Source: an uncultured Spirochaetales bacterium
Lineage (GTDB): Bacteria > Spirochaetota > Spirochaetia > SPDA01 > CAZSGZ01
Direction: 5' to 3'
Assembly (NCBI GenBank): GCA_964458315.1
Contig: CAYWIK010000003.1
Coordinates: 3,712-67,711, forward strand
Length of the DNA: 64,000 nucleotides
Shown: piece after piece, positions 13,132 through 45,810 of the stretch
Layout of the letters: each line of letters opens with the position of its first letter
How positions within the stretch are numbered: the stretch's first letter is position 1
Position numbers and translations under genes: made by a program
Notes under the pieces: generated by a model
Database searches by the model: none
What the model saw: the letters and a program-made list of their open reading frames with translations, nothing else
Told to the model about the DNA's origin: nothing

Positions 13132-16100
13132 CAGTCCGTTTCCATCTCCAGTCCACCGAGAGCGTCTCGGCCATAAAATAATCTTCGAAAGTTTTCACCG
13201 CCTCTTCCATTTCCTCGGACCCATATAGATAAAGGCGAATCCGGTCCGTAACATCAAGATCCGTTTCCTTCCGCATATTCTGCACATGCCGCACTAAGTC
13301 CCGGATAATACCCTCGCGTTTCAGGTCTTCTGAGATTTCAGGGTCCAACGCAACCGTAAGGGAACCTTCATTCAAGACCTTTAGGTTCTCTTTTTCAAAC
13401 CGCTGGACCTGGATTCCTTCCCGGGTAAGATCGAAGGTCATATCATCAAGGTCGATCGAAAGGGTCGCGCCTTCCATGAGGGACTGAATTTCCTTCATGT
13501 TGAGTTTTTCTATTTTCTCGGCCGCGGATTTCATATATTTTCCCAAACGCTTCCCGAGTACCTTGAAATTCGGTTTTGCTTTATATTCGACCAAGTCTTC
13601 TTCATTTTCCCGGAAAATGACCTCTTTTACATTGAGTTCTTCCCGGATAATGTCTTCCATCTCCCGCAGTATTTTCCTCTCCTCTTTGTTGATCGTCACG
13701 AGATGCAGCGCTTTGAGGGGCTGCCGTATCTTAATTTCGTGCATACTCCGCAGGGCCCGGCCCATGCTTACCGCCTGCCTGGTAATCTCCATCTTCCGTT
13801 CCAGTTCCCGGTCCCGGGCCTCTTTTCGGGATACGGGGAAATCGCAAAGATGAATCGATTCCGGCATTTCCTCCTGCTTCAGATTTTGGTAAATCTCCTC
13901 GGTGATAAAAGGAATAACGGGGCACGCCACGGTAATTAGTTTCATGAGGACCGAATAGAGGGTTTGATACGCCTGCTCTTTATCGACGTCGTTTTCCGAA
14001 CGCCAAAAACGCCTTCGCGACCGCCGGATGTACCAGTTGTTGAGCAAATCGATAAACATGACCATTGGCGTAATTGCCTTCTGCAGATCGTATTCCTCCA
14101 TATTCTCGATCACTTCAGCCACCAATTTCTCCGCTTCCGACAAGATCCAGCAGTCTAAGGGATTGTCAGGATTTTCAGGGCGGCCGGCAGGTTGGATTCC
14201 GTCGATGTTTGCATAGGTAACAAAAAAACTGTAGGCGTTCCAAAGAGGAATAATAATGGTTTTAAGAATCTCCTTCACTCCCTCGTCGGAATATTTGAGG
14301 TCCTCGGCCTTCACGACCGATGAAAATACAAGAAACAGCCGCAGGGCATCGGCCCCGTAATTATTGATGACATCCATCGGATCGGTGTAATTCCTCGCCG
14401 ATTTACTCATTTTTTTCCCGTCTTCCGCCAGGACCAAACCGTTTACGATCACATGTTTAAATGAGGGGCTCTTCCAGAGAGCAGCCGCGAGTACCGTTAA
14501 AGTGTAAAACCAGCCCCTGGTTTGATCGAGTCCTTCGCTGATAAAATCCGCGGGGAAATTTTTCTCAAAATGTTCCTTTTCTTCAAAAGGATAGTGATTC
14601 TGCGCGTAAGGCATGGCGCCTGATTCGAACCAGCAGTCGAGAACTTCCGGGACCCTTGCCATGGTCCCGCCGCATGAACAGGGATATGTAATTTCATCAA
14701 CAAAATGTTTATGGAGGTCCTTCACCTGTTTACCGGACTTCTCCTCCAGCTCGCCTTTGGAACCGATACATTCAACATGTTCGCAGGCATCACACCGCCA
14801 AATCGGAATCGGATTTCCCCAATAGCGGTTCCTGGAAATTGCCCAGTCCCGGGCGTTCTCGAGCCATTTGCCGAAACGCCCCTTCCGCAGGTGCTCCGGG
14901 ACCCAGTCGATTTGATCGTTTGCTTCCAGCATATCCGGTTTAAATTTCTGAATATCCACAAACCAGGAGGAAATGGCCCGGTAAATAAGGGGAGAGCTGC
15001 ATCTCCAGCAGTGAGGGTAATTATGCAGATAGTTTTCCCGTTTTACGATTTTTCCTTCTTCCTTGAGTTTTTTAATAATCCCTTTGTCCGCGGCTTTCAC
15101 AAAAAGACCGCTGAAATCCCACACCTCTTCGGTAAACTGCCCCTCCGCGTCAACGGGACAGACGGTCGGGACTTCGGTATCCTTCAGCAGCCTGTAGTCG
15201 TCTTCTCCAAACCCCGGGGCGGTATGTACAATTCCGCTTCCCTCCTCTGTAGAAACATAATCACCGAGGTATACGCGAAACGCCCCATTCTCTTCCGCGT
15301 CGGCAAAGTACGGGAACAGAGGTTCATACCCTTCGCCTTCGAGTTCCGCCCCCTTGAATTCCCGGACAATTTTGTATTCATCCTCCGAGCGATAATATTC
15401 TCCGAGCAGGTCCTTTGCGAGAATGTACCGTTCATCTCCGTCTTGGACTTCTACATAATCGATATCCGGCCCTACAGCCAGAGCGAGATTGGACGGCAGG
15501 GTCCATGGGGTGGTGGTCCAGGCAAGGAAAAATGTGTTATTTGCATTTAGTTTTTTAAACTTCACCGTAATTGCAGGATCATGGACCTGCTGATATCCGC
15601 CGAGGTTGAGTTCGTGGTTAGATAAAACCGTAGAGCATCGGGGACAGTATGGCAGGATATAGTGACCTTCGAATATGAGTCCTTTTTCCCAGAGACGGCT
15701 GACCACCCACCATATCGACTCCATATAATCCGGTTCCATAGTCTTGTAATCGTTGTCAAAGTCGACCCACCGGCCCAGCCGCGTGATGACCTGCCTCCAT
15801 TCGCCGGTATAGCGAAGTACGATCGAACGGCACGCCTCGTTGAATTTGGCCACTCCATACTCTTCTATTTCCCGTTTTCCGGAGATACCAAGCTCTTTTT
15901 CCATCTCATATTCTACCGGAAGGCCGTGGCAGTCCCAACCGAACCTTCGTTCTACCATTTTCCCCCGCATCGTTTGATACCGCGGGACAATATCTTTAAT
16001 CGTACTCGGAACAAAATGACCGAAATGGGGTAAGCCGGTAGCAAAAGGAGGGCCGTCATAAAAGATGTATTCTTCCGAACCGTCACGATTTTCCACAGAT

Positions 16101-16189
16101 TTCTTAAAAATATTTCGAGTCTGCCAAAATTCCAGGATCTTCTCCTCTTTTTGCGGAAAATTGACCTTCGGGTCTACCGGTTTATACAA
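13070..16189 (-). CDS. ileS: isoleucine--tRNA ligase
   Basis: 1039 aa; HIGH-region PFATGLPHFGH, KMSKS, editing domain. TTG start preceded by AGGAGG. Confidence 0.9.
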   Translation of the reverse strand: MYKPVDPKVNFPQKEEKILEFWQTRNIFKKSVENRDGSEEYIFYDGPPFATGLPHFGHFVPSTIKDIVPRYQTMRGKMVERRFGWDCHGLPVEYEMEKELGISGKREIEEYGVAKFNEACRSIVLRYTGEWRQVITRLGRWVDFDNDYKTMEPDYMESIWWVVSRLWEKGLIFEGHYILPYCPRCSTVLSNHELNLGGYQQVHDPAITVKFKKLNANNTFFLAWTTTPWTLPSNLALAVGPDIDYVEVQDGDERYILAKDLLGEYYRSEDEYKIVREFKGAELEGEGYEPLFPYFADAEENGAFRVYLGDYVSTEEGSGIVHTAPGFGEDDYRLLKDTEVPTVCPVDAEGQFTEEVWDFSGLFVKAADKGIIKKLKEEGKIVKRENYLHNYPHCWRCSSPLIYRAISSWFVDIQKFKPDMLEANDQIDWVPEHLRKGRFGKWLENARDWAISRNRYWGNPIPIWRCDACEHVECIGSKGELEEKSGKQVKDLHKHFVDEITYPCSCGGTMARVPEVLDCWFESGAMPYAQNHYPFEEKEHFEKNFPADFISEGLDQTRGWFYTLTVLAAALWKSPSFKHVIVNGLVLAEDGKKMSKSARNYTDPMDVINNYGADALRLFLVFSSVVKAEDLKYSDEGVKEILKTIIIPLWNAYSFFVTYANIDGIQPAGRPENPDNPLDCWILSEAEKLVAEVIENMEEYDLQKAITPMVMFIDLLNNWYIRRSRRRFWRSENDVDKEQAYQTLYSVLMKLITVACPVIPFITEEIYQNLKQEEMPESIHLCDFPVSRKEARDRELERKMEITRQAVSMGRALRSMHEIKIRQPLKALHLVTINKEERKILREMEDIIREELNVKEVIFRENEEDLVEYKAKPNFKVLGKRLGKYMKSAAEKIEKLNMKEIQSLMEGATLSIDLDDMTFDLTREGIQVQRFEKENLKVLNEGSLTVALDPEISEDLKREGIIRDLVRHVQNMRKETDLDVTDRIRLYLYGSEEMEEAVKTFEDYFMAETLSVDWRWKRTDESAEVECGNEKCHIDLEKI

Positions 16190-16245
16190 AATGTCCTCCT
16201 GAACAATATTCGCTGTATTTCTATTCCAAAGGGATTAGTCCGCTC

Positions 16246-16275
16246 ATTCTAGAGAGATTCATAAAAACCTGTCAA
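16246..16275 (-). promoter_or_regulatory. sigma70-like promoter for ileS: TTGACA(16270-16275 rc)-N18-TAGAAT(16246-16251 rc)
   Basis: Seen in sequence, ~55 nt upstream of the ileS start. Confidence 0.4.
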
Positions 16276-16314
16276 GGCATTGCCGCCGGCTTATTTTTCG
16301 TATACCTTCCAATT

Positions 16315-17430
16315 ATGAAGGTAGAAGGCAAACATTACAGGACCATTTGGGCTGATCCTACAGACAACGGGTCGGTCAGCATCATCGACCAGCGGAAACT
16401 TCCCCATCGGTTTGAAGTAGTGAAACTCGCAAACGTTGACGAAGTCGCGGCCGCAATACGTGAGATGTGGGTGCGCGGCGCCGGTCTGATCGGGGCCGCC
16501 GCGGGGTTCGGTATGTATCTCGCCGCGCTGCGCGGGCCGGAAAAGGACCTGCGGGAATATCTTGAAAATGCCGCGGAAAAGCTCATAAAGACCAGGCCCA
16601 CGGCAAGCAATTTAAGCTGGGCGGTTAAACGTCAACGTACCGCACTCGGCCGCCTCGAAAACCAAGGTGATATCGTTACAAGCGCCTTAGAGACCGCGCA
16701 GTCAATAGCGGATGAAGATGCCGAGTTCTGCCGGAGTATCGGTGAACACGGGGTTCATTTGATCGAAGAGATTTATAGGCAGAAGGGCAATCGACCGGTC
16801 GAGATCCTGACCCACTGTAATGCCGGCTGGCTCGCGTTTGTGGACTACGGCAGTGCGACCTCGCCCATCTACGCCGCGCACGACCGGGGGGTCCCGGTCC
16901 ATGTATGGGTAGACGAAACCAGACCGCGAAACCAAGGCGCCGGGCTGACCGCCTGGGAATTGGGACAGCACGGCGTTCCCCACGACGTGATTGTCGATAA
17001 TGCGGGGGGCCATCTCATGCAGCACGGGATGGTCGATTTGGTTCTTACCGGGGCTGACCGCATTACCGCGGGAGGGGACGCTGCAAATAAAATCGGCACG
17101 TATTTAAAAGCCCTCGCCGCCGGGGACAACGGTATCCCCTGCTACATTGCCTTTCCCTCTTCCACTATCGACTGGGAAATGTACGACGGCGTCAAGGAGA
17201 TTCCGATCGAAGAACGAAGCGCGGACGAGGTTCGCTTTGTCAGCGGGATGTCCAAGGGCGAGTATCGTTCAGTCCTCCTTTGTCCGAAGGACTCACCTGC
17301 AAGAAACTGGGGATTCGATGTAACTCCCTCCCGGCTTATTACCGGATTTATTACCGAACGGGGTGTTTGTTCCGCCGATAATGAGGGACTGCTGCGCCTC
17401 TATCCTGAATTCTCCGGCTCTGCATCCTGA
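16315..17430 (+). CDS. mtnA: S-methyl-5-thioribose-1-phosphate isomerase / eIF-2B-like isomerase family
   Basis: 371 aa; KLPHRFEVVKL, GAGLIGAAAGFGMYLAA, THCNAGWLA..., GADRITAGGDAANKIGTY, all typical of the MtnA/e2B2 family. Confidence 0.75.
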   Translation: MKVEGKHYRTIWADPTDNGSVSIIDQRKLPHRFEVVKLANVDEVAAAIREMWVRGAGLIGAAAGFGMYLAALRGPEKDLREYLENAAEKLIKTRPTASNLSWAVKRQRTALGRLENQGDIVTSALETAQSIADEDAEFCRSIGEHGVHLIEEIYRQKGNRPVEILTHCNAGWLAFVDYGSATSPIYAAHDRGVPVHVWVDETRPRNQGAGLTAWELGQHGVPHDVIVDNAGGHLMQHGMVDLVLTGADRITAGGDAANKIGTYLKALAAGDNGIPCYIAFPSSTIDWEMYDGVKEIPIEERSADEVRFVSGMSKGEYRSVLLCPKDSPARNWGFDVTPSRLITGFITERGVCSADNEGLLRLYPEFSGSAS

Positions 17431-18593
17431 TATTGATGAAAAATTGTAAGCACTTGATCAATATTCGAGGTAAAAAGATCGATCAACCGGGGTTCGAAAT
17501 GAACGCCCCTCTCCTTTCTAAACAGTTCGAGAATATCATCTATGGACCACGCCTGTTTATACACCCTTTTGTTTGATAACGCATCAAAAACATCCGCAAT
17601 GGCAGTAATTCTGCCGTAGAGATGGATATCTTCGCCTTTTACTCCTCTTGGATACCCTTCTCCGTTCCACTTTTCGTGATGTTCATGGGCTACAATGGAG
17701 GCGGCCTTGAGAAGCCGCCGTTCCGAGTATTTGAGCATTTCATACCCTAAAGTAGTATGGCTTTCCATCTGTTTTCGTTCTTTTTCGGTCAATTTTCCAG
17801 GTTTGAGGAGGATCGCATCGGGAATCGCTATTTTCCCAATATCATGCAGCGGAGACGCGAGCTTAAGCATTGAGGCTTCCTTTTCTTCCATTCCATACAG
17901 ACGACCTAACAAATATGTATACTCGGCTACCCGTTTAACATGATATCCCGTTTCTTTCGACCGAAGCTCGCCGGTTTCCGCTAAGGTATGGATTATCTCC
18001 CGCTGTGTATTCTCGATCTCCTCCTGCAGCAGTACCGCTTCAAGCTGTTTACCGGTGTATGTAGCCGCAATGAGCAGATGTTCCTTATCCTGCTCGGTAA
18101 ATCCTTTCTCTTGAGTAAGCTTGTTAACAGCCTGAAAGACGCCGATAATTTTTCCTTCACTGGTACGGATCGGAAGTGCGATGATGCTTCTGGTTGTATA
18201 CCCCGTTTTCTTGTCAACCTCTTTGTCAAAGCGGTCGTCCGCGTATGGATCATTTATTACTTCGGGCTCTCCATTGCGGGCAACATATCCCGCAATACCG
18301 TGGGAAAGAGGTATCCGTATTTCCTTGAGGCCGTGGGAAACTCGGCTCCATAATTCCATGTTCTTTTCATCGAGAAGCCAAAGAGTACACCGGTCCGCCC
18401 CGATCAGGTCTCTCCCCATATCTGCAAACAGGGTCAATAACTTATCGACGTCCCGCTCATTCGCAATCCTGCTTATATAGTCAAGGATAATTGGAATCAG
18501 TTTTTGTTGCATATGGGAATTATAAAAAACCTTATCGTAATAGTCGATAACTCTTTTCAATTTTTTCTCCTTTTTGTACAATGCACAGGCCAT
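17400..18593 (-). CDS. GAF domain-containing HD-GYP phosphodiesterase (c-di-GMP signalling)
   Basis: 397 aa; N-terminal GAF-like region; HD-GYP core HVKRVAEYTYLLG...PLHDIGKIAIPDAILLKPGKLTEKE...GYEML. Confidence 0.75.
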   Translation of the reverse strand: MACALYKKEKKLKRVIDYYDKVFYNSHMQQKLIPIILDYISRIANERDVDKLLTLFADMGRDLIGADRCTLWLLDEKNMELWSRVSHGLKEIRIPLSHGIAGYVARNGEPEVINDPYADDRFDKEVDKKTGYTTRSIIALPIRTSEGKIIGVFQAVNKLTQEKGFTEQDKEHLLIAATYTGKQLEAVLLQEEIENTQREIIHTLAETGELRSKETGYHVKRVAEYTYLLGRLYGMEEKEASMLKLASPLHDIGKIAIPDAILLKPGKLTEKERKQMESHTTLGYEMLKYSERRLLKAASIVAHEHHEKWNGEGYPRGVKGEDIHLYGRITAIADVFDALSNKRVYKQAWSIDDILELFRKERGVHFEPRLIDLFTSNIDQVLTIFHQYQDAEPENSG

Positions 18594-19749
18594 GATCTTT
18601 GTTTATATTATTATCGGTTTGTTTGCGGGAACGACATTACTCTCCCACATATCCCTTTCCTGCGGCGTCATTTTATCCTATAAGAATGAGAAAAAACGGC
18701 GCTTACGCTATGCCGGAGAAGGGTTAGATGATTATTCTATTTCGATCATCATTCCCGCACGAAATGAGGAAGAAAACCTTCCGAAATTATTTCTCGCTTT
18801 AGAAAACCAGAGTTATAACCGGTTCAACATCGTCCTCGTCAACGACAGGTCTAAAGACCAGACCGCGGAGATTATGGAAGCCTTTAAAAAAAAACACCCT
18901 GAAAGGGTTGAAATAATTCACGTGGCCGAATACAGCGATTTCCCCGGAATGAATCCGAAACAGTATGCGCTTTTTCAGGGAATCGAGGGCTGCACCAGTG
19001 ATATTCTCCTGTTCACCGATGCGGATTGTGTGCCGCCTCCCCGGTGGGTCGAATACACTGCCATCCATTTTTTAGAGCCGGAGGTAGGTGTAGTAATCGG
19101 GCCGATTCATACCGAACAAAAAAGGGGATTTATCTACCGTTTTCAGGTATTCGACCATATTTTCCGGTATTTTTATACCGTTGCAAGCGCCGGCATGGGC
19201 ATGCCGACCGGCGGGTTCGGTAATAATCTTGCAACCCGCAAAAAGGCAATAGACGATATCGGCGGGTACGGATCCATCGGTTATTCCGTAACTGAAGATG
19301 CCGCACTGATTGCAAAAATCAGGGAATTAAACCGGTACGGCATAGCGGCGACCACCACACGGGAAACTCGTGTTATCGCCGCTCCTCAGGCAAAGTGGCG
19401 CATATTGTCTAAACAGGAACGCCGCTGGAGTTACGGGGCTTTTTACTCTCCGGATTGGAAAACAATTTTAGGCTATGGTGCAGTTATGCTCTTTCTCTTT
19501 GCAGGTTTGGTCTCGATTCCTCTTTCTCTTCTCTTTTCTCCCCTCAGGATCATAATCGGTTCAACCTTTACGAGCATGCTTATCATGGCATGCGCGGGCG
19601 GAGCATGTCTTAAGATGCAATTTCGTGAATATTGGCTTTGGCTTATTCCGTCGATTATCTGGTGCGCCCTTTTCTATACCTTTAACAACATTCTCTCTTT
19701 CATTAACATTCCTATCGAGTGGAAGGGGAAAAAACTGGAAAAAATGTGA
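18574..19749 (+). CDS. membrane glycosyltransferase family 2 (processive-type, QxxRW motif; ceramide/diacylglycerol glucosyltransferase-like)
   Basis: 391 aa; SIIIPARNEEENLP, DXD FTDADC, QERRWSYG (QxxRW), N- and C-terminal TM helices. Stop overlaps the next start (ATGTGATG). The true start may be ATG 18592. Confidence 0.75.
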   Translation: MYNAQAMIFVYIIIGLFAGTTLLSHISLSCGVILSYKNEKKRRLRYAGEGLDDYSISIIIPARNEEENLPKLFLALENQSYNRFNIVLVNDRSKDQTAEIMEAFKKKHPERVEIIHVAEYSDFPGMNPKQYALFQGIEGCTSDILLFTDADCVPPPRWVEYTAIHFLEPEVGVVIGPIHTEQKRGFIYRFQVFDHIFRYFYTVASAGMGMPTGGFGNNLATRKKAIDDIGGYGSIGYSVTEDAALIAKIRELNRYGIAATTTRETRVIAAPQAKWRILSKQERRWSYGAFYSPDWKTILGYGAVMLFLFAGLVSIPLSLLFSPLRIIIGSTFTSMLIMACAGGACLKMQFREYWLWLIPSIIWCALFYTFNNILSFINIPIEWKGKKLEKM

Positions 19750-22700
19750 TGCAGAATAAATTCCGCCGGTTACTAGCGGGGATCGATGTAGGCTCGACTA
19801 CGGTAAAACTGGTCCTTTTGGAACCGTCAACGAAAGAAATCGTTTTTAAGCGCTACCTGCGGCACAACACCGCTCAGGCGAAATCGGTCTATCGGCTACT
19901 AAAAGAAGCCCACCAAGCTTTTCCCCACGGCTCTTTCCGGCTTTCGGTCTGCGGGAGCGGGGGGCAGCCTATTGCTCAAGCCTTAGGCGCCTTCTACATT
20001 CAGGAAGTTGTCGCCAACTCTATTGCGGTAAAAAATTTTTACCCCAAAACACGATCTGCCGTCGAACTTGGCGGACAGGACGCAAAGGTTATTTTTTTTA
20101 GGCGGGATAATGAAAGCGGAAACACTCTCGCTTCCGATATGCGCATGAACGGGACCTGTGCGGGGGGAACCGGTTCTTTTATTGAACAGATAGCAGATCT
20201 ACTCGGAATAGCAACGGAAAATTTTGACGCAGCCGCAAAACGCGGAAAACATATATACGACATTTCCGGCCGGTGCGGTGTGTTCGCAAAGACAGACATC
20301 CAACCGCTTTTGAGTCAGGGAGTATCGAAGGAAGATATCGCTCTATCCTCTTTTCACGCCCTGGTGAAACAGACGATCGGCGGGCTGGCACAGGGCATGG
20401 ATTTCCGGCCGGCGGTTCTTTTTGAAGGAGGGCCCCTTACTTTCAACCCCACCCTGGTCTCAATATTCAAAGAACGCCTCAGACTGAAGGACGATGAAAT
20501 AATAATCCCCGAAAACCCGGAACTCATTATTGCAGTCGGCGCCGCGCTCGCGGGAGAGACGATGTTTCATGACAAACCGTGCCGTTATGATCCGACACGT
20601 TCCCTGAAAAAGCTTTTACAAAATGATGATATGCACGCGGGAAATCTTGAAGATGCCGTCCGGTTTTTTTCTTCCCGGCAGGATCGCGTTGAATTTTATA
20701 AGCGCCACCGCCCGCCCGCGCCTTCCGAGGCGGTCCCCATGGACGGGGTGCGCAATATTAAAGGGTACCTTGGAATCGATGCAGGATCGACGACAACTAA
20801 ATTTGCCCTGATCGATACAGGAGGCAAAGTCCTCGAGACTTTTTATGCAAATAACGGCGGCGATGCACTGCAGGTAATAAAACGGGGCTTGTCCGAACTT
20901 CGTACCCGTTTCAGCCAAAACGGGACAACCCTCTCGATTCTCGGGTGCGGAACCACGGGCTACGGCGAAGAACTGTTTGCCCGGGCCCTGCACGCGGACC
21001 ATCACACGGTAGAAACGGTCGCGCATGCCCGGGCCGCCACAGCCTACGCACCGGAGGCGTCATTCATCCTCGACATCGGCGGGCAGGATATGAAGGCCAT
21101 TTCCCTCAACGGAGGTATTATTACCGGTATTGTTTTAAATGAAGCATGTTCCGCCGGGTGCGGATCTTTCATTGAAACGTATGCAAACTCCCTTGGGATA
21201 CCGGTAGATAAAATAGCGGAATACGCCTTTTCTGCTGAAAATCCTTCGAACCTCGGGTCGAGATGTACTGTTTTTATGAACAGCTCGATTGTAACCGAAC
21301 AAAAACAGGGAAAGACGAGAAACGACATTCTTGCGGGACTGTGCAGATCAGTTATCGGAAATGTGTTTACCAAGGTCCTGCGGATTTCCAACTTGGAAAA
21401 TATGGGCAAACTAGTGGTAGCGCAAGGCGGTACCTTTAAAAACGATGCAGTTCTGAGGGCCTTCGAACATTATCTCGAAAGCAGAGGGAATATAAAAGTC
21501 ACCCGCCCGCCGTATCCGGGGGAGATGGGCGCCATTGGTATCGCCCTGCTCACGAAAGAAGAAATTGAAAAAAAACAGGGGGGAGGACCCTATAAAAGCA
21601 CATTTATCGGCCTTGAACAGATTGAACAACTCGGCTATCGGAAAATACCGGGAGTTGTTTGCAACTACTGCTCAAATAACTGTAATCGAAGCGTAATCGA
21701 GTTTTTCGACGGGACCGTCTATGTTACAGGCAATAGATGTCCAAAGGGAGAAATCGTAGGCGACCTCGACGATCCGGATACAAAGGAACAGCTTAACGAA
21801 ACCCACAAAAAAATGAAAGCGATACCGGACCTCCTCAAAGAGCAACAGCGCCTCCTTTTCAAAGACTACCGCCGAAAACGGGTAAGCTCGGAAAAAAATA
21901 TAACCATCGGTATACCACGGGTCCTTGATTTCTGGTCGAGCATTCCTTTTTGGAAGGCCTTTTTCGAAGCTCTGGGATTTATCGTTGTATTGTCCGCGGA
22001 AAGCAGCTCTTCTCTTTACGAAAAAGGGATCGCCTCGGTTCCATCGGACACGGTATGCTTTCCCGCTAAATTGGCTCATGGGCATATTCTCGACCTGGTC
22101 GAAAAAGGGGTTGATCGAATTTTCATGCCGATGATGATTCGCGTTCCTAAAATAAACAGGACCGCGGACGGCAACCATGTCTGTTCCGTCATTCAGGGAT
22201 ATCCTGTAGTACTCGAAAAGAGTGATAATCCGGCGGGAAAATACAATATCCCTTTCGATATCCCTACATTTCATTGGTATAATGAGAAATTGAAATATCG
22301 GCAGACCATACGATATTTTTTCGAGCAATATTCTATTCCAAGGATTGAAGTTTTCAGGGCGATAAAGGAAGGTGACAAGGCAATGTCCGAATATCGCGGC
22401 ATTATGGCCGATAGGGGAAAAAGGGTCATTGCCCACTTAGGCACAAAATATCCCTTCGGTGTAGTAGTCGCGGGCCGCCCCTATCACAGCGATCCTCTGA
22501 TAAACCATCACATCTCTTCCTGTTTCACCTCCGCCGGCATACCGGTTTTGGTCCTGGATTCTCTTCCCCATATCCATTCCCAGGATCTCTCAAACACACG
22601 AATCGAAACCACGATTGCAAGTCATACAAAAATGCTCGAAGGGACCTTGTGTGTTGCAAAAAATCCATATCTAGAAATGGCCCAAGTGGTTAGTTTCGGA

Positions 22701-24176
22701 TGCGGCCATGATGCAGTGGTTAGTGATGAAATGTCGAGGATATTACAAGAAACTTCCAACAAGGAACTGCTCATACTCAAAATGGATGAAGGAGAGGCGC
22801 GCGGGCCGTTTACCATCCGCATAAAATCATTTCTCGAAACGTTGCGATTTAAACGGGAAGAGAAAATCCATCATCGGAAATACGGCAGTTTCAAAGAGCT
22901 TAAAGATGCCTTTACCACGAAATTCCTCCGCCGGCATAAGCGGACGAAGACTGTACTGGTCCCCAATCTTTCACCCGCCTTTTCGACAATAATCGGATCG
23001 GTTATGAAGCGCGAGGGTTATAAAGTTTTTCAAATGCCCCTCGCCGACCGTGAGGCCATCGAGCTGGGCAAACGGTATGTGCATAACGATATCTGTTTTC
23101 CGGCCCAGGTAAACATAGGGGAAACCCTGCGGTGTCTTCAAAAGGAAAAGTTCGATCCCGACACTGTTGCGGTTGGATTTGCAAAAAACTGTGAAGACTG
23201 CAGAGCGGGGCAATATGCCGCGCTGGCACGAAAGGCCCTGGACGAAGCAGGGTATCCGCAGGTCCCGATCATGACTACCGGACGAGACAGAAAAAACATG
23301 CATCCCGGTGCTCAGTTGAGCCCCTTCTTTTACCTGGATATGATCTGGGGCCTTGTTTTGATGGACGGTCTTGAAATGATGAGACGCACCACCCGTCCAT
23401 ACGAAATAAATCCGGGCGAAACGGATCGAGTTTTTTCCTCCCACGTAGAAAAAATCGCGGCAACGGTTACAATTAGCCATCAGGGCGCGCTTCACCTATT
23501 AAGCAGGGCCGTCGACGCTTTCAATGCCGTTCCGGTGCGCAGAGAAGGAACAAGACCCCGGGTCGGAATCGTGGGAGAAATATTTCTAAACTATCATCCC
23601 GTATCAAACGGCCGTATCGAGAACTATTTGGAGAGTCACGGCATGGAGGTAATCATCCCTCCGATGCTCGACTTTTTCCGCCGCTCTTTTGTAATCGACA
23701 AAAACAAGGCGAAGCGGAATCTTTTACCCAACCCTTTCTTTAATCTCATCGCCTCCGGTCTTTCCGATCTCATCATCGAAGGGATAAAAGGGAAAGCCGA
23801 TGGAATCCTGAAAAATTTTCGGTTTAACCGTCATACAAGTTCTATCGGGCACCTTGTCCGAAATATTGAACATATGATCGATGTCTCCTATATTGTTGGT
23901 GAAGGCTGGCTGATCCCCGCGGAAATAATCCAGCTTATCAAGGAGGGGGTCCATTCATTTGTCATTATCCAACCCTTTGGATGCCTGCCCAATCATATCA
24001 CCGGCAGAGGAATGATCAAGGCAGTCAAAGAACAGTATCCGGGGGTACAGATCCTTCCCCTCGATTACGATCCGGACACAAGCTTCGCCAACATTGAAAA
24101 CCGGCTTCAAATGCTCATCTTAACGGCAAAGGAATTGGATAAAATGGGTTCAAAAAAACATGCAAAGGCGTCGTAA
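19719..24176 (+). CDS. fused BadF/BadG/BcrA/BcrD-type ATPase (two activase domains) plus 2-hydroxyacyl-CoA dehydratase-like module; candidate PlsA/PlsR-type plasmalogen synthase (start possibly ATG 19749)
   Basis: 1485 aa; two actin-fold ATPase domains (GIDVGSTTVKLVLL, GIDAGSTTTKFALI), Cys cluster CNYCSNNCNRS...GNRCPKGE, then two HgdB/dehydratase D-component-like halves (GIPRVLDFWSS...DTVCFPAKLAHGH; VLVPNLSPAFS...HNDICFPAQV). Confidence 0.6.
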   Translation: MEGEKTGKNVMQNKFRRLLAGIDVGSTTVKLVLLEPSTKEIVFKRYLRHNTAQAKSVYRLLKEAHQAFPHGSFRLSVCGSGGQPIAQALGAFYIQEVVANSIAVKNFYPKTRSAVELGGQDAKVIFFRRDNESGNTLASDMRMNGTCAGGTGSFIEQIADLLGIATENFDAAAKRGKHIYDISGRCGVFAKTDIQPLLSQGVSKEDIALSSFHALVKQTIGGLAQGMDFRPAVLFEGGPLTFNPTLVSIFKERLRLKDDEIIIPENPELIIAVGAALAGETMFHDKPCRYDPTRSLKKLLQNDDMHAGNLEDAVRFFSSRQDRVEFYKRHRPPAPSEAVPMDGVRNIKGYLGIDAGSTTTKFALIDTGGKVLETFYANNGGDALQVIKRGLSELRTRFSQNGTTLSILGCGTTGYGEELFARALHADHHTVETVAHARAATAYAPEASFILDIGGQDMKAISLNGGIITGIVLNEACSAGCGSFIETYANSLGIPVDKIAEYAFSAENPSNLGSRCTVFMNSSIVTEQKQGKTRNDILAGLCRSVIGNVFTKVLRISNLENMGKLVVAQGGTFKNDAVLRAFEHYLESRGNIKVTRPPYPGEMGAIGIALLTKEEIEKKQGGGPYKSTFIGLEQIEQLGYRKIPGVVCNYCSNNCNRSVIEFFDGTVYVTGNRCPKGEIVGDLDDPDTKEQLNETHKKMKAIPDLLKEQQRLLFKDYRRKRVSSEKNITIGIPRVLDFWSSIPFWKAFFEALGFIVVLSAESSSSLYEKGIASVPSDTVCFPAKLAHGHILDLVEKGVDRIFMPMMIRVPKINRTADGNHVCSVIQGYPVVLEKSDNPAGKYNIPFDIPTFHWYNEKLKYRQTIRYFFEQYSIPRIEVFRAIKEGDKAMSEYRGIMADRGKRVIAHLGTKYPFGVVVAGRPYHSDPLINHHISSCFTSAGIPVLVLDSLPHIHSQDLSNTRIETTIASHTKMLEGTLCVAKNPYLEMAQVVSFGCGHDAVVSDEMSRILQETSNKELLILKMDEGEARGPFTIRIKSFLETLRFKREEKIHHRKYGSFKELKDAFTTKFLRRHKRTKTVLVPNLSPAFSTIIGSVMKREGYKVFQMPLADREAIELGKRYVHNDICFPAQVNIGETLRCLQKEKFDPDTVAVGFAKNCEDCRAGQYAALARKALDEAGYPQVPIMTTGRDRKNMHPGAQLSPFFYLDMIWGLVLMDGLEMMRRTTRPYEINPGETDRVFSSHVEKIAATVTISHQGALHLLSRAVDAFNAVPVRREGTRPRVGIVGEIFLNYHPVSNGRIENYLESHGMEVIIPPMLDFFRRSFVIDKNKAKRNLLPNPFFNLIASGLSDLIIEGIKGKADGILKNFRFNRHTSSIGHLVRNIEHMIDVSYIVGEGWLIPAEIIQLIKEGVHSFVIIQPFGCLPNHITGRGMIKAVKEQYPGVQILPLDYDPDTSFANIENRLQMLILTAKELDKMGSKKHAKAS

Positions 24177-25320
24177 GAAAGGAATTTTATTCCTCTATTT
24201 AAAATCCGGAGGAGGCCATCTCTCCGCCGCCAGGACCTTAGCCGGATCTATTTCTTCAAAATACCGGGACACCATGATTCCTTATCTTCTCAACCCGATT
24301 CCGGGCGGAGCAGCGGTCACCAATTTTCTTCTTCAGCGCGGTTACCGTTTCTCTTCCCATGCCTTCCGCGCCATTTGGATTTTTCTATACGAAATAAGTA
24401 AACTCACGGTTATTGATTATTTTTGGAGTTTTATTATCTACCGTTCCATAAAAAAAAATCTTACCGTCTATCTCCAAAAAAATGAAATCCACACCATCGT
24501 CATTCTGCATTTTCTCTTAGCCCGCCCGGTGAAATGGGTCCTCAGAAAGAGCGCCGCGGCCGGGGAAAAACAAACCTGCGATATTGTACGTATTGTCACC
24601 GACCCGTACACAGCACATCATGCGTGGTTCAGCAGACCGGACATAAAGACAATTGTTTTTTCAAAACGCCTGAAACAGCTGGCAGTCGAAAATTTTAATT
24701 TTCGACCCCAATTTATCCGTGTAGCCCCTCCCATGCTGGACCGGAAATTCAGCGTTCCCCTGAGTGAGCAAAACAAAGAGGGCGAAAAAGAAAAACTCAA
24801 TCTGCGGAAAGGGAAAAAGGTCGTGCTCTTTGTCGGGGGCGGAGAAGGGCTGCCCCGGGGAATTTATTTTCTTAAAAAGCTATTGAAGTCAGACCTCGAC
24901 TTCCAGATCATTTTCATCTGCGGAAAAGACCGCGGGATGCGGCGGAAGGCGGAAAGGCTTGCGGCCCGTTTCCCTTCGAAAAAACTCATTGTGTTCGGGT
25001 TCGTGAACTTTATGCGTGAATGCATGGCCGTAGCAGACGCAGTGGTTTGTAAAGCCGGGCCCGCGGTTATTCGGGAATCCCTCGCAACCGGAACCCCGTT
25101 GGTTATTATCCGCTATCTTTATGGTCAGGAACGGGGAAATATGGAATATGTAACAAAGAACAGGCTCGGGTATTACACCCCTACACCGAAAAAAATGCTT
25201 ATAAAACTCGGTGAAGCCATGTCACATTCCCCCGGTTGGGACCGGACGGTAAAACAGGTTGCGGATTGGGAAATGGAGAATGGTACCGAGTTGATCGTCG
25301 AGGAACTTGCATCAAACTAA
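24160..25320 (+). CDS. MGDG-synthase/UgtP-like diacylglycerol glycosyltransferase (GT28 family)
   Basis: 386 aa; N-terminus KGILFLYLKSGGGHLSAARTL typical of the MGDG_synth domain; C-terminal GT-B domain (FGFVNFMRECMAVADAVVCKAGPAVIRESLATGTPLV). Start overlaps the upstream gene by 17 nt. Confidence 0.7.
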   Translation: MQRRRKKGILFLYLKSGGGHLSAARTLAGSISSKYRDTMIPYLLNPIPGGAAVTNFLLQRGYRFSSHAFRAIWIFLYEISKLTVIDYFWSFIIYRSIKKNLTVYLQKNEIHTIVILHFLLARPVKWVLRKSAAAGEKQTCDIVRIVTDPYTAHHAWFSRPDIKTIVFSKRLKQLAVENFNFRPQFIRVAPPMLDRKFSVPLSEQNKEGEKEKLNLRKGKKVVLFVGGGEGLPRGIYFLKKLLKSDLDFQIIFICGKDRGMRRKAERLAARFPSKKLIVFGFVNFMRECMAVADAVVCKAGPAVIRESLATGTPLVIIRYLYGQERGNMEYVTKNRLGYYTPTPKKMLIKLGEAMSHSPGWDRTVKQVADWEMENGTELIVEELASN

Positions 25321-27990
25321 ATCTTTCAAATGCCGGTCGATTTTCTCGAGTTTTCCTGCCAACTCTTGCCGAATGCTCTGTTCTTTTTCAATAACGTCTC
25401 GCGGGGCCCGTTGTATGAACTGCTCGTTTGCCAGTTTCTTTTCTACCTTATCCAGCCTCGAAAGAAGTTTTTCACGTTCTTTTTCGAGTTTTTTAATTTC
25501 TTTCGGCACATCGATCACATCTTTTACATAGACAAAAGCCACAAAGCCTTTTCCGGGAACCGGCACACTTCCTTCCAAGTCCGCTCCCTCGACCTCGGTT
25601 CCCTTTTCGGAAATGCTCAGCTCCGAAGCCTGTATGAGGTCGGCAATTAAAGCGTGATGATTGCTAAAAAAATCGCAGGCGAAAAAACCGGGATCGGTGC
25701 GCACATACACCCTTATTTTGCTCGAAGGCGGAAGAGTAAACTCGCTTCTTAAGGTCCGCACTTCCCTGACCAATTCCTGAAGAGATTCGAATTTCGCCGC
25801 CAGGTCGAATCTCTCACGGCCCGGTTCCTCTTGCGGATAGGGCGAAGTTATTAACAGGCCGTCGGTATTTGGAAGTTTTTGATAAATCTCTTCCGTTATA
25901 AACGAAAGAAACGGATGCAGCAGCCTGAGGCTTTCTTCGAGGATGTGCATGAGAAGAGTTGCGGCTTTGTTTTTTATATATTCATCGTCATGATAAAGAT
26001 CCAGCTTCGAAGCCTCGATATACCAATCACAGAAGTCATTCCAAAAAAACTCATACAAGGCTTGGGCGGCATCGTTAAACCGGTAATTCTCCATTCCCCG
26101 GTTTACCGCCTTGACCGCTTCGTTCAGCCGGTGGTAAATCCAGCAGTCTATATTTTGTAATTCAATCTCTTCCAGCGGCAGCAGCTCCCTGTCTTCGAGG
26201 TTCATAAGCAGGTACCGCGCCGCATTCCAGATTTTATTCGCAAACTTCGAACCCAGTTTAAAACTTTCTTTGTCGATTAAAATATCCTGCCCTTGAGCCG
26301 CGAGAAATGTAAGGGTAAATTTGAGGGCGTCGGCTCCATACTCACCGACGATTTCGATGGGATCGATGCCGTTTCCAAGGCTCTTCGACATCTTTCTTCC
26401 CTGTTTGTCCCGAATCAGGCCGTGAATGTAAATGTCTCGAAACGGGGCCTCCCCCATAAACTCCATTCCTGCCATGATCATACGGGAAACCCAGAAAAAA
26501 ATGATGTCGTACGCTGTCACCAGGGCGCTGGTCGGGAAATATGTCTTGAGGTCTTCGGTAATGTCGGGCCAACCGAGGGTTGAAAAGGGCCAAAGCCAGG
26601 AAGAAAACCACGTGTCGAGTACATCTTCGTCCTGCCTTATCTTCTTGCTGCCGCAAGCAGGGCAAACTTCCGGGTCTTCACGAAGGGCGGTCACTTCGCC
26701 GCACTCATCGCAGTACCAGACCGGTATACGATGGCCCCACCACAGCTGCCTGGAAATACACCAGTCCCGGATATTATCCAGCCAATGGGTGTAGGTGTTC
26801 TCCCATTTTTTAGGATAAAACCGAATGTCGTCGTCCCGCAGGGCCTGAAGGGCCTTTTTAGCCAAGGGCTTCATCCGAACAAACCACTGTTCCGAAAGAT
26901 AGGGCTCTACGATTGTGTCGCACCGGTAACAGTGGCCGATCTGATGCGCGTGGTCCTCTTCCCCGATAAAAAATCCGTCCTTTTTTAAATCTTCCACTAC
27001 TTTTTTCCGGGCTGCATCAACATGCAGGCCTTGATAGGGCAGCGGCACATTTTCATTCAACCTCCCGTCCGGGCGAAGAATGTTTATTTTCTCAATACCG
27101 CTCCTTTCGCTTACATCCCAGTCGTTTTGGTCGTGGGCCGGCGTAACCTTGACCGCCCCGGTCCCGAATTCTTTGTCCACCATTTCATCCGCAATAACCG
27201 GTATTTTCCTGCCCGTCAGAGGCAGTTCCACTTCTTTGCCGACAGCCCTCCGATACCGCTGATCTTCAGGATGTACGGCGACGGCGGTGTCTCCGAGCAT
27301 CGTTTCCGGCCTCGTGGTGGCTACCTCGATCGACCCGGACCCGTCGGAAAAAGGATATCGTATGTGGGTAAGCCTGCCCTGCACTTCGCGGTGTTCGACC
27401 TCATCATCCGAAAGCGCAGTCCCGCAGGAAGAACACCAGTTTACGAGATAGTTGCCCTTATAGATAAGTTCCCTTTCGAAGAGCGTGACAAACACTTCCC
27501 GTACCGCCTTCGAAAGCCCCTCATCCAGGGTAAACCGTTCTCTCGACCAATCACACGAAGCGCCGATTTTTTGCAGCTGCTCGACGATTTTTGCATGATG
27601 TTCTTGCTTTACCTTCCACGTTTCTTCAATAAAACCTTCCCGGCCTAGTTCCTGCCGGTCGATTCCCTGATTACGCAGCTTTCTCTCAACGACATTCTGG
27701 GTAGCGATTCCGGCATGGTCGGTTCCCGGCACCCAGAGGGTAGGACGGCCCTCCATCCGGTAGTATCTGACCAGAATGTCCTGAAGGATATTGTTCAACC
27801 CATGGCCCATATGGAGCACACCGGTGACGTTAGGCGGCGGTATTACAATGACAAAAGGAGAATCCCCTGGCCCCTTCGGTTTAAAGCTGTTCGCGGAAAG
27901 CCACAACCTATATATGTCGTCTTCAAATTCCCTCGGATTAAACGCCTTTGGTAACTGGATTCCTTTCATCGGTGCTCCTCGTTTTTCCAC
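25312..27990 (-). CDS. valS: valine--tRNA ligase
   Basis: 892 aa; PPPNVTGVLHMGH, KMSKSLGN, C-terminal coiled-coil. Confidence 0.9.
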   Translation of the reverse strand: MEKRGAPMKGIQLPKAFNPREFEDDIYRLWLSANSFKPKGPGDSPFVIVIPPPNVTGVLHMGHGLNNILQDILVRYYRMEGRPTLWVPGTDHAGIATQNVVERKLRNQGIDRQELGREGFIEETWKVKQEHHAKIVEQLQKIGASCDWSRERFTLDEGLSKAVREVFVTLFERELIYKGNYLVNWCSSCGTALSDDEVEHREVQGRLTHIRYPFSDGSGSIEVATTRPETMLGDTAVAVHPEDQRYRRAVGKEVELPLTGRKIPVIADEMVDKEFGTGAVKVTPAHDQNDWDVSERSGIEKINILRPDGRLNENVPLPYQGLHVDAARKKVVEDLKKDGFFIGEEDHAHQIGHCYRCDTIVEPYLSEQWFVRMKPLAKKALQALRDDDIRFYPKKWENTYTHWLDNIRDWCISRQLWWGHRIPVWYCDECGEVTALREDPEVCPACGSKKIRQDEDVLDTWFSSWLWPFSTLGWPDITEDLKTYFPTSALVTAYDIIFFWVSRMIMAGMEFMGEAPFRDIYIHGLIRDKQGRKMSKSLGNGIDPIEIVGEYGADALKFTLTFLAAQGQDILIDKESFKLGSKFANKIWNAARYLLMNLEDRELLPLEEIELQNIDCWIYHRLNEAVKAVNRGMENYRFNDAAQALYEFFWNDFCDWYIEASKLDLYHDDEYIKNKAATLLMHILEESLRLLHPFLSFITEEIYQKLPNTDGLLITSPYPQEEPGRERFDLAAKFESLQELVREVRTLRSEFTLPPSSKIRVYVRTDPGFFACDFFSNHHALIADLIQASELSISEKGTEVEGADLEGSVPVPGKGFVAFVYVKDVIDVPKEIKKLEKEREKLLSRLDKVEKKLANEQFIQRAPRDVIEKEQSIRQELAGKLEKIDRHLKDLV

Positions 27991-32401: not shown

Positions 32402-32402
32402 A

Positions 32403-45779: not shown

Positions 45780-45810
45780 AAAGAAATAATGACATCTCCG
45801 TCTGGAAAAT

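Follow-up and report, generated by a model that had tools for sequence, protein, structure and literature searches.

Introduction

Ether-lipid formation in E. coli has been demonstrated for members of the PlsA/Ger family of glycerolipid sn-1 ester reductases (PMC12838417, PMC13159169). In PlsA/PlsR from Clostridium perfringens (CPE1194/CPE1195), two activation domains are combined with two domains for reduction/dehydration that bear [4Fe-4S] cysteines (PMC12838417, Fig. 8 legend), and single-gene PlsA proteins of 1415-1640 aa are present in Enterococcus faecalis, Lactococcus cremoris, Bifidobacterium longum, and Listeria. Plasmalogens are made from finished diacyl lipids (PMC9702350). Ger ('modified PlsA'), such as Tmari_0479 from Thermotoga maritima and SHJ90043 from Desulfatibacillum alkenivorans, is a member of the same family and makes saturated 1-alkyl ethers (PMC13159169); according to specialists, no sequence criterion tells PlsA and Ger apart (PMC13274423). 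The known substrates of the PlsA/Ger family are membrane lipids, whereas those of the 2-hydroxyacyl-CoA dehydratases and class I benzoyl-CoA reductases are CoA thioesters. Among lipid glycosyltransferases, ceramide glucosyltransferase and cyanobacterial MgdA (Sll1377; topology described in PMC3916417) possess a cytoplasmic GT-A domain with D/DxD/ED/QxxRW residues and flanking transmembrane (TM) helices, and plant MGD1 and UgtP/YpfP from Bacillus and Staphylococcus carry a GGGH loop near the N terminus and lack TM helices.

Here, a stretch of 64,000 nucleotides from an uncultured Spirochaetales bacterium (the window) was analysed, in which a plsA-like gene is flanked by two glycosyltransferase genes. 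The enzymes are ordinary, and their gene arrangement is an undescribed arrangement of known parts. A preliminary description had held that a module making and glycosylating vinyl-ether lipids was new; this stands for the gene arrangement, as no published link between plsA and a glycosyltransferase was found in the literature searched, but not for the product class, since alk-1-enyl glycolipids are already known chemically: Brachyspira glycolipids and phospholipids bear alkenyl chains (PMC3035287), and plasmalogen forms are on record for the glycosyl-diradylglycerols of clostridia and of C. difficile (PMC9702350, PMC11898633).

Gene order and proposed function

The three open reading frames of the preliminary description are all present on the + strand, in the order GT2, multidomain enzyme, and GT28 (Table 1). 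The GT2 frame is program-listed at 18574-19749, with the ATG at 18592 as its likely start. The large frame is program-listed at 19719-24176 and 1485 aa, the length first given for it; counted from the ATG at 19749 the protein is corrected to 1475 aa, and the architecture claimed for it stands. The ATGTGATG junction matches exactly, with this ATG in place, and the 17-nt overlap at the other end is equally seen in the sequence, the GT28 ATG lying 17 nt ahead of the PlsA TAA at 24174-24176. Known PlsA genes differ in that they stand alone and, in the cases described, lie next to a TetR-type regulator gene (PMC9702350), which is absent beside the window gene; the neighbours of the window gene are aaRS, HD-GYP, and GT genes. 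A promoter-like site lies just 5' of the GT2 start, inside the ~80 nt that separate GT2 from the divergent HD-GYP gene, and might, on a weak match, be the operon promoter. The overlapping codons argue for co-transcription and make translational coupling possible, and nothing beyond; of the earlier claim of one transcript and stoichiometric expression, the first part is thus backed and the second goes too far.

Table 1. Features of the GT2-PlsA-GT28 locus, in window coordinates
Feature	Position	Strand	Remarks
Promoter-like site TTTTCA-17-TACAAT	18554..18582	+	Consensus scan alone, 9/12 matches; weak
GT2/GT21-like integral-membrane glycosyltransferase, 385 aa	18592..19749	+	Putative lipid (diacylglycerol-type) glycosyltransferase
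GT2 stop / PlsA start, ATGTGATG	19744..19751	+	1-nt overlap (TGATG), read from sequence
PlsA/Ger-family glycerolipid sn-1 ester reductase, fused PlsA+PlsR type (predicted)	19749..24176	+	1475 aa
Activase ATPase domain 1, residues ~9-270	19773..20558	+	DxGSTxxK motif; cluster cysteines C137, C176
Activase ATPase domain 2, residues 341-611	20769..21581	+	Cluster cysteines C467, C506
CxxCxxxC...C motif (C638, C641, C645, C664)	21660..21740	+	Between activase and reductase modules
Catalytic half 1, residues 712-1050	21882..22898	+	Pfam DUF2229; conserved C770, C812, C985
Catalytic half 2, PlsR-equivalent, residues 1060-1470	22926..24158	+	Conserved C1116, C1151, C1412
PlsA 3' end / GT28 5' end	24160..24176	+	17-nt overlap, read from sequence
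GT28 MGDG-synthase/UgtP-like peripheral glycosyltransferase, 386 aa	24160..25320	+	N-terminal GGGH loop, no TM helix

There is about an even chance that the three genes constitute one operon making ether-linked glycoglycerolipids, in vinyl-ether form, in an anaerobic Treponema-like spirochaete. GT28 (MGD1/UgtP-like) and GT2 (GT21/MgdA-like) would transfer hexoses from UDP-sugars to diacylglycerol, possibly to monoglycosyl-diacylglycerol, and the central protein would act as a self-contained PlsA/PlsR-type radical enzyme. A single [4Fe-4S] cluster would be shared between its tandem ATPase domains, and ATP hydrolysis would drive a low-potential electron into the HAD/BCR-like halves, each of them with a cluster site formed by three Cys. 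Acting on a membrane glycerolipid that is already complete, the halves would convert the acyl ester at sn-1 into a 1-alk-1'-enyl (vinyl) ether by reduction and dehydration, with no need for O2. Through co-transcription, new glycolipid, and probably also phospholipid, would be sure to end up as plasmalogen. The domain structure, the fold, the family, the conserved gene linkage, and the phyletic distribution are observed; the substrates, the sugar added, the order of the steps, and the choice of a vinyl- over an alkyl-ether product are our suggestions.

Conservation of the gene linkage

The trio is retained with overlapping or near-abutting junctions in four diverged relatives, with identities of 63-83% for PlsA, 49-78% for GT2, and 41-62% for GT28, and is restricted to the lineage of the window, PlsA-GT28 and GT2-GT28 pairs being present in sister lineages. 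An overlap or gap of no more than 16 nt between PlsA and GT28 is found at loci L081, L084, L085, L097, and L102. Pairs of PlsA and GT28 with an overlapping ATG...TGA junction lie under different flanks at L096 and L097 and beside ValRS at L102, and GT2-GT28 pairs without PlsA occupy the identical chromosomal site at L098-L100. The trio loci also have housekeeping flanks in common, so that synteny alone accounts for some of the conservation. Neither of the trio glycosyltransferases was found within 6-8 kb of other PlsA genes, at 80 genome loci or at three stand-alone spirochaete loci, indicating that most PlsA enzymes work without them. The GT2-PlsA-GT28 trio has the look of an operon specific to this lineage and devoted to ether-linked glycolipids; the shared flanks, the confinement to one spirochaete sub-clade, and the PlsA loci without the glycosyltransferases count against that reading.

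The same distribution can be read as a lack of biochemical coupling, in which the interval between IleRS and ValRS is a variable membrane-lipid gene island, the overlapping codons reflect genome compaction, PlsA acts on bulk phospholipids as elsewhere, and the glycosyltransferases independently make diacyl glycolipids. This is possible, although on the unlikely side. GT28 alone, GT2-GT28, PlsA-GT28, or the trio are present at one chromosomal site in related genomes, the majority of PlsA genes stand alone, and other adjacent genes in the window overlap too, such as GT28 and ValRS by 9 nt at their 3' ends. However, the overlapping PlsA-GT28 pair recurs in a different neighbourhood (L096, L097), and the three genes all have to do with one class of molecule. 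On neighbour-joining trees of both PlsA and GT28, the L096 and L097 pairs sit beside the trio clade, where bootstrap values of 58% (PlsA) and 45% (GT28) lend weak support to the PlsA-GT28 linkage having arisen once.

Domain structure and family of the large protein

The large protein possesses two activase domains, as had been described, both of which are matched by Pfam BcrAD_BadFG (250 bits), followed by DUF2229 (PF09989; 223 bits against a cut-off of 29.4). NCBIfam matches include the acyl-CoA dehydratase activase TIGR00241 and, over residues 9-269 of the first activase domain, benz_CoA_red_D. The second activase domain matches HgdC (1hux; phmmer E 1e-27), with C467 and C506 standing opposite both HgdC cysteines in the alignment. 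The cysteine pairs of the two domains (C137/C176 and C467/C506) have the same spacing of 39 and are invariant among homologues. The Cys cluster noted earlier in the frame corresponds to C638, C641, C645, and C664, which are invariant in sets of 12 and 50 homologues and constitute a probable extra metal or Fe-S site.

The homologue of PlsA from Listeria monocytogenes exhibits 36% identity over residues 10-1462 (99% of the length) and an identical Pfam architecture, and the homologue from a Fibrobacter succinogenes MAG (L003) aligns end to end at 52% identity. These end-to-end alignments indicate that the large protein is, by sequence, a member of the PlsA/Ger family; it was aligned with the Listeria homologue and likened to PlsA from C. 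perfringens and E. faecalis by published description. In Fusobacterium animalis the homologue is divided into two genes of 975 and 404 aa, split near window residue ~1035-1060, the 404-aa product aligning separately to residues 1062-1467 at 29% identity. This split falls at a PlsA/PlsR-type boundary and, together with the Listeria alignment and the shared Pfam architecture, supports the fused PlsA+PlsR protein first proposed. The window subfamily, of ~1470 aa, is present in Spirochaetes, Fibrobacteres, Coriobacteriia, and Lachnospiraceae at 46-57% identity, and a Firmicutes/Fusobacteria tier is ~36% identical to the window protein.

Family membership leaves room for a Ger-type central enzyme in the same operon, the product of which would be saturated 1-O-alkyl ether glycolipids and not plasmalogens. 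Such an enzyme is unlikely. In its favour, the Ger proteins of T. maritima and D. alkenivorans share, by description, the core of 2x PF01869 and PF09989 (PMC13159169), and two activase domains, the number in the window protein, have been tied to alkyl-ether producers (PMC13274423). Homologues of ~52% identity are present in Deltaproteobacteria MAGs, and one of these (P0089, 52%) equals the Fibrobacter homologue in closeness, which counts against the vinyl-ether reading. The points on the other side are not decisive. Listeria and F. succinogenes are reported plasmalogen producers, Listeria anaerobically (PMC9702350; phenotypes from strains other than those of the sequences compared), and their homologues also possess two activase domains. 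The spirochaete ether lipids on record are alkenyl (PMC3035287). In Ger the core is followed by short C-terminal PF06050 (HGD-D) segments of ~50 aa, whereas the window protein possesses the core with no PF06050 match at E up to 10, a search in which HMMER filters drop weak matches. Whether PlsA or Ger, the protein would be expected to work only anaerobically and to attack the glycerolipid sn-1 ester, as described for Ger (PMC13159169).

The flanking glycosyltransferases

The claim that both flanks of the large frame encode lipid glycosyltransferases is credible on PDB, profile, and homologue-name evidence. Among PDB entries, Arabidopsis MGD1 matches GT28 best, along its full length (residues 5-346; E 3.6e-25), with a processive DAG beta-glucosyltransferase in second place (E 2.7e-16). 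With Pfam, Glyco_tran_28_C reaches 39.6 bits (cut-off 22); for MGDG_synth, the N-domain of this GT-B fold, the window protein reaches 20 bits (cut-off 25) and the L098 orthologue 39.9 bits. GT28 has in common with MGD1 and UgtP/YpfP full-length similarity, the N-terminal loop, and the lack of a TM helix, and differs from them in that plsA, in the window clade, runs on beyond the GT28 start codon and in that its NCBIfam score falls under the equivalog cut-offs (98 bits against 500 for diglucosyl-DAG synthase). It is predicted to be a DAG glycosyltransferase, with hexose transfer suggested by homologues that carry the names MGDG synthase or DAG glycosyltransferase.

GT2 is matched by Pfam Glycos_transf_2 (88 bits) and by Glyco_transf_21 (54.3 bits against a cut-off of 21.7). 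Its DAD, TED, and Q-x-x-R-W residues (D143, D145, E235, D236, Q275, R278, W279) are invariant in 40 homologues, and one N-terminal helix (2-39) and three C-terminal helices (289-311, 316-339, 348-370) lie around a cytoplasmic GT-A domain, as in ceramide glucosyltransferase and MgdA. A lipid (DAG-type) acceptor is what these features would suggest for GT2. It is decidedly unlikely that GT2 is instead a small processive glycan synthase or polyprenyl-phosphate glycosyltransferase, with GT28 alone belonging functionally with PlsA. Its best structural matches are polysaccharide synthases, which counts against a lipid acceptor, weak NCBIfam matches include PgaC and HpnI/HpnB, and PlsA-GT28 pairs without GT2 exist. 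Against this, the GT21 score is over the cut-off, the profile match to ceramide glucosyltransferase extends from the N-terminal helix through the entire catalytic domain in proteins of equal size (~390 aa), and four helices are too few for a glycan channel; moreover, GT2 homologues adjoin the DAG-type GT28 at L098-L100 and sit amid glycerol-metabolism genes at L093.

The catalytic halves and CoA-thioester enzymes

Like the window protein, the 2-hydroxyacyl-CoA dehydratases (HgdAB with HgdC, HadBC with HadI) and the class I benzoyl-CoA reductases (BzdNOPQ, MbdNOPQ) combine an ATPase activator with a bridging [4Fe-4S] cluster and an alpha/beta-type catalytic fold, whereas the window protein carries all four modules on a single chain. 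The two HgdAB-like halves of the preliminary description are borne out at the fold level. In an AlphaFold model covering residues 615-1475 (pLDDT 88.5), both halves have the fold of HadBC and BzdNO, and hhalign pairs half 1 with half 2 (Prob 89.8%, E 1.8e-6), the three Cys of one half falling on those of the other. At the sequence level they are not, the halves being only 10-15% identical to HgdAB/HadBC/BzdNO-type enzymes and PDB sequence searches with them giving no HgdAB or HadBC match. Of the two Pfam families that had been named for this region, HGD-D is unmatched and DUF2229 is matched, with a further weak match in half 2 (E 0.006). That the large frame encodes a 2-hydroxyacyl-CoA dehydratase or other CoA-thioester radical enzyme with a fused activator, unrelated to lipids, is highly improbable, as this fold and the database names 'acyl-CoA dehydratase activase' and '2-hydroxyacyl-CoA dehydratase' are outweighed by the missing HGD-D and PDB sequence matches, by an activator that is fused and not separate, by a neighbourhood without CoA-transferase or amino-acid fermentation genes, and by an architecture and full-length homology that are those of the ether-lipid makers of the PlsA/Ger family. 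In the modelled PlsA/Ger-family protein, the catalytic pair adopts the HAD/BCR alpha-beta fold with Cys cluster sites, the second half being the predicted PlsR equivalent.

Gene layout of the cluster

The three plus-strand open reading frames claimed in the preliminary description, encoding a GT2 glycosyltransferase, a large protein of the PlsA/Ger family and a GT28 glycosyltransferase, are all present (table below). The large frame had been given as 1485 aa and is 1475 aa when the ATG at 19749 is taken as its start. As this ATG is in frame, the string ATGTGATG is common to GT2 and the large gene, as had been proposed, and the 17-nt overlap of the large gene with GT28 was also found. The overlapping codons argue for a single transcript with possible translational coupling; the stoichiometric expression deduced from them earlier is not established by such overlaps. 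Downstream, a ValRS gene converges on the cluster, and its 3' end and the GT28 stop overlap.

Upstream lies a divergent gene of the GAF/HD-GYP, c-di-GMP phosphodiesterase type, and a single CATG serves as the start codon of both its longest frame and that of GT2. The actual HD-GYP start is probably the ATG at 18510-18512, which leaves ~80 nt before GT2 with promoter-like hexamers on both strands (18510-18594). Promoter and terminator scans returned weak consensus matches and nothing stronger.

Coordinates of the cluster and of other features in the window
Feature	Position	Strand	Remark
IleRS-ValRS interval	13070-27990		compared with L089, L092, L098-L100, L102 and L104
GAF + HD-GYP (c-di-GMP phosphodiesterase-type) gene	17400-18593	-	divergent from GT2, upstream of the trio
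GT2 ORF	18592-19749	+	likely start ATG 18592, mechanical start TTG 18574, stop TGA 19747-19749
PlsA/Ger-family ORF	19749-24176	+	1475 aa, start ATG 19749, stop TAA 24174-24176
GT28 ORF	24160-25320	+	386 aa, start ATG 24160
GT2/PlsA junction	19744-19751	+	ATGTGATG, read from sequence
PlsA/GT28 overlap	24160-24176	+	GT28 ATG 24160, 17 nt before PlsA TAA 24174-24176
Five aminoacyl-tRNA synthetase genes	722-2047, 13070-16189, 25312-27990, 33492-34895, 40553-41935		
TP0453-like lipoprotein; TatT-type TRAP T-component	12145-13131; 44814-45872	-; -	
ORFs without Pfam match at E 1e-5 (453, 391 and 181 aa)	35999-37360, 51063-52238, 31907-32452	all -	

Domains and family of the large protein

The large protein possesses two BcrAD_BadFG ATPase domains and a DUF2229 domain in Pfam, and the NCBIfam acyl-CoA dehydratase activase domain twice. 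Both ATPase domains retain the phosphate-binding DxGSTxxK motif and each contains a cysteine pair at 39-residue spacing (C137/C176 and C467/C506), the second pair falling opposite the two cysteines that ligate the cluster in HgdC (1hux), the activator ATPase of 2-hydroxyacyl-CoA dehydratase. The tandem domains can therefore form a pseudo-dimer which, by analogy with the HgdC structure, can hold a bridging [4Fe-4S] cluster. A CxxCxxxC...C motif (C638-C664) that is invariant among homologues follows the ATPase domains.

In PDB sequence and profile searches only the activase domains were matched, the last 860 residues finding no solved dehydratase, and Pfam HGD-D was absent from the protein even at relaxed thresholds, so a test of the fold was needed. 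An AlphaFold model built from 50 homologues was confident (pLDDT 88.5, pTM 0.86), and residues 712-1050 and 1060-1470 are homologous to each other by hhalign (Prob 89.8%, E 1.8e-6), with the triad C770/C812/C985 in register with C1116/C1151/C1412. The earlier description of two HgdAB-like halves is thus fully confirmed, except that their Pfam family is DUF2229, not HGD-D.

The PlsA/PlsR-type architecture has been described for the oxygen-independent plasmalogen synthase of C. perfringens, and the single-gene PlsA of E. faecalis, L. cremoris and B. longum contains two activation and two reduction/dehydration domains with [4Fe-4S] cysteines (PMC12838417). The family is very large, with at least 8000 members (8000 of 8000 scored candidates pass E 1e-10), and the nearest 120 matches are all at least 52% identical to the window protein. 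The latter sits within a ~1470-aa subfamily from Spirochaetes, Fibrobacteres, Coriobacteriia and Lachnospiraceae (46-57% identity), and proteins from Firmicutes and Fusobacteria form a tier at ~36%. Among homologues found by tblastn of PLSDB, a 1475-aa protein of Listeria monocytogenes is 36% identical over window residues 10-1462 with identical Pfam architecture, and in Fusobacterium animalis the homologue is divided between a 975-aa and a 404-aa gene, the latter aligning with residues 1062-1467, a split of the PlsA/PlsR type. The Listeria pls gene is reported to be active under anaerobiosis (PMC9702350). Given the architecture and the full-length homologues, membership of the PlsA/Ger family is solid on sequence grounds; it does not settle the product type. 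The two L. monocytogenes 'plasmid' records in PLSDB, NZ_CP030101.1 and NZ_LR134399.1 (L094), have sizes of 2.9 Mb and 394 kb and contain genes of the chromosome, among them the PlsA homologue; they appear to be mislabelled chromosome sequence.

The flanking glycosyltransferases

GT2 (385 aa) scores above the Pfam GT21 threshold, retains the DxD, ED and QxxRW residues and has a catalytic domain preceded by one helix and followed by three, the topology described for the cyanobacterial diacylglycerol glucosyltransferase MgdA (PMC3916417). A profile of its family matches ceramide glucosyltransferase at E 2.9e-9, over a stretch that begins with the N-terminal helix and ends at QxxRW. A 42% identical homologue at locus L093 (8001-9140) lies between glycerol-3-phosphate dehydrogenase-like (glpA-like) genes, a GlpP antiterminator, the glycerol kinase gene glpK and a patatin-like lipase, and another homologue is named 1,2-diacylglycerol 3-beta-glucosyltransferase; this gene context and naming support placing the GT2 family in glycerolipid metabolism. 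GT28 (386 aa) has no transmembrane helix and a GGGH loop near its N-terminus, and matches the Arabidopsis MGDG synthase MGD1 along its whole length (E 3.6e-25) and processive diacylglycerol beta-glucosyltransferase at E 2.7e-16. Its homologues are mostly from spirochaetes, including Treponema medium and Salinispira among the matches listed, and where named are MGDG synthases or diacylglycerol glucosyl/galactosyltransferases. The earlier identification of two flanking lipid glycosyltransferases is therefore made credible by the MGD1 and GT21 matches, with the acceptors predicted.

Distribution of the arrangement

A GT2 or GT28 homologue within 6 kb of PlsA was found at none of 80 loci in named genomes of many phyla, from Fibrobacter, Treponema, Collinsella, Lachnospiraceae, Clostridia and others, which rules out the trio as a general feature of PlsA genes, and at three more spirochaete loci PlsA (55-58% identical) stands alone. 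Occurrences of the trio were limited to the lineage of the window, where four diverged relatives have it (PlsA 63-83%, GT2 49-78% and GT28 41-62% identical); they share the same housekeeping flanks, and in each the PlsA/GT28 junction is overlapping or nearly abutting. Taken alone, this conservation could be plain synteny. At loci L096 and L097, a PlsA (56-57%) followed by GT28 (35-37%), with the GT28 ATG again overlapping the PlsA stop, occurs between other flanks, namely LeuA and CYTH upstream and a secreted protein downstream. L102 has PlsA-GT28-ValRS without GT2; L098-L100 keep the window's flanks with GT2 followed directly by GT28 and no PlsA; and at L104 only GT28 lies between IleRS and ValRS. 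Every pairwise adjacency of the three genes occurs among the loci. Together, the PlsA-GT28 pairs and the variants lacking PlsA argue for more than plain synteny. That the genes are co-located without specific coupling, a reading that overlaps with the enzyme assignments, is in our view somewhat unlikely. In neighbour-joining trees of PlsA and of GT28, the pair loci lie next to the trio clade, which suggests that the PlsA-GT28 linkage arose once; as the bootstraps are only 58% and 45%, a single origin is not shown. The arrangement is rare: in a family of thousands only a few clusters have it, all of them from a single group of uncultured spirochaetes.

Across related spirochaetes, the IleRS-ValRS interval contains GT28 only; an eIF2B-like gene with GT2 and GT28; the latter set plus HD-GYP and PlsA; or PlsA and GT28. 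A lone GT2 adjoins IleRS at L092, and PlsA adjoins IleRS in S. cellobiosiphila (L089). These variants mark the interval as a variable island, with GT28 as its constant member and GT2 and PlsA present at some loci but not at others. The HD-GYP gene is present at every trio locus and missing from L098-L100 and L102. At L098 (6675-8923), which lacks HD-GYP and PlsA, the eIF2B-like gene (IF-2B family, MtnA-type) runs in the same direction as GT2 and extends 4 nt past its start, suggesting that an unrelated-looking gene is co-transcribed with the glycolipid glycosyltransferases. The secreted protein of L096 (9007-10446) and L097 (8664-10058) is conserved, is 464-479 aa long with a signal-peptide-like N-terminus and no Pfam match, and may be an outer-membrane protein. 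ValRS also lies directly downstream of a PlsA homologue in two Clostridium genomes (L066 8366-10984, L077 10560-13181), and downstream and convergent in the window; the Clostridium adjacency may be coincidence.

Proposed pathway and product

In anaerobes, plasmalogen synthesis starts from completed diacyl lipids (PMC9702350), and glycosyl-diradylglycerols of clostridia and C. difficile occur in plasmalogen forms (PMC9702350, PMC11898633). The spirochaete Brachyspira innocens has alkenyl chains in both glycolipids and phospholipids, the glycolipid being a monogalactosyl-diglyceride (PMC3035287); literature searches on spirochaete plasmalogen glycolipids returned a secondary citation and nothing further. 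Based on the diacyl-lipid route and the known plasmalogen glycolipids, a model is proposed in which the operon couples glycolipid synthesis to a PlsA/PlsR step with a vinyl-ether product, for which we see an even chance. The two glycosyltransferases would make mono- or di-hexosyl diacylglycerol, and the fused enzyme would use ATP to reduce the sn-1 ester at low potential and dehydrate it, giving ether glycolipids and probably ether phospholipids too.

An unchanged operon with a Ger-type saturated-ether product is considered unlikely. Specialists regard PlsA and Ger as not assignable at present from primary structure (PMC13274423); the homologue from Fibrobacter succinogenes (L003), an organism with PE and plasmenylethanolamine as its main lipids (PMC9702350), is 52% identical to the window protein. 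A rule that two activase domains denote Ger was rejected because the Listeria and Fibrobacter proteins carry two as well. The plasmalogen-synthase identity first proposed therefore holds at the level of the family, with the Listeria protein aligning end to end at 36%, and the vinyl-ether product is not fixed by sequence. A non-lipid CoA-thioester substrate for this PlsA/Ger-family protein is very improbable.

The coupled vinyl-ether model has a more specific form, which we hold doubtful: that the PlsA-linked GT28/GT2 clade is a dedicated, genetically defined pathway to phosphate-free ether glycolipids (glyco-plasmalogens), in which PlsA prefers glycosyl-diacylglycerol or GT28 is specific for alkenyl-acyl-glycerol, possibly switched by the divergent GAF/HD-GYP phosphodiesterase. 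If this is correct, no earlier route to glycosylated vinyl-ether lipids would be known, and the three genes would form a compact cassette for their heterologous production.

Alk-1-enyl glycolipids of anaerobic spirochaetes and clostridia have been known chemically for decades, and we know of no gene set tied to them; the anaerobic ether-lipid enzymes PlsA and Ger were identified only in 2021-2022. Literature searches of incomplete coverage found no description of a gene cluster joining a PlsA-type enzyme with these glycosyltransferases, and plasmalogen, plsA and glycosyltransferase together returned only a sponge-symbiont ether-lipid preprint. The earlier claim of an undescribed three-gene module thus survives for the gene arrangement, the PlsA/Ger family, both glycosyltransferase families and the product class being already known. 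The gain would be incremental, not conceptual, and plausible rather than surprising to a lipid specialist. The operon is a good, cheap experimental target, a three-gene cassette in which glycolipid acceptance by the PlsA family, step order and vinyl versus saturated ether can be tested; the product of the window subfamily would add a data point that could help with the PlsA-versus-Ger problem, and in uncultured spirochaetes the cluster is useful as a marker from which ether glycolipids can be predicted.

Genomic setting

The remaining window is ordinary spirochaete chromosome, including glycolysis and aromatic amino-acid genes, and its TP0453-like lipoprotein and TatT-type TRAP T-component point to a Treponema-related source. 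The nearest database relatives are all uncultured (Logan assembly 98%, JGI metagenomes 83%). The composition of the trio gives no hint of recent horizontal transfer, its GC content of 0.47-0.50 showing no anomaly against 0.45-0.53 elsewhere in the window. Scans of the window for tRNAs and for Rfam families came back empty. Within 42 kb there are five genes for aminoacyl-tRNA synthetases (His, Ile, Val, Cys and a class II Asp/Asn/Lys type), an unusually high density. Next to the 181-aa ORF lie a TIG/transglutaminase protein and an ECF sigma factor/zf-HC2 anti-sigma pair (32403-33459), and L098 keeps this arrangement.
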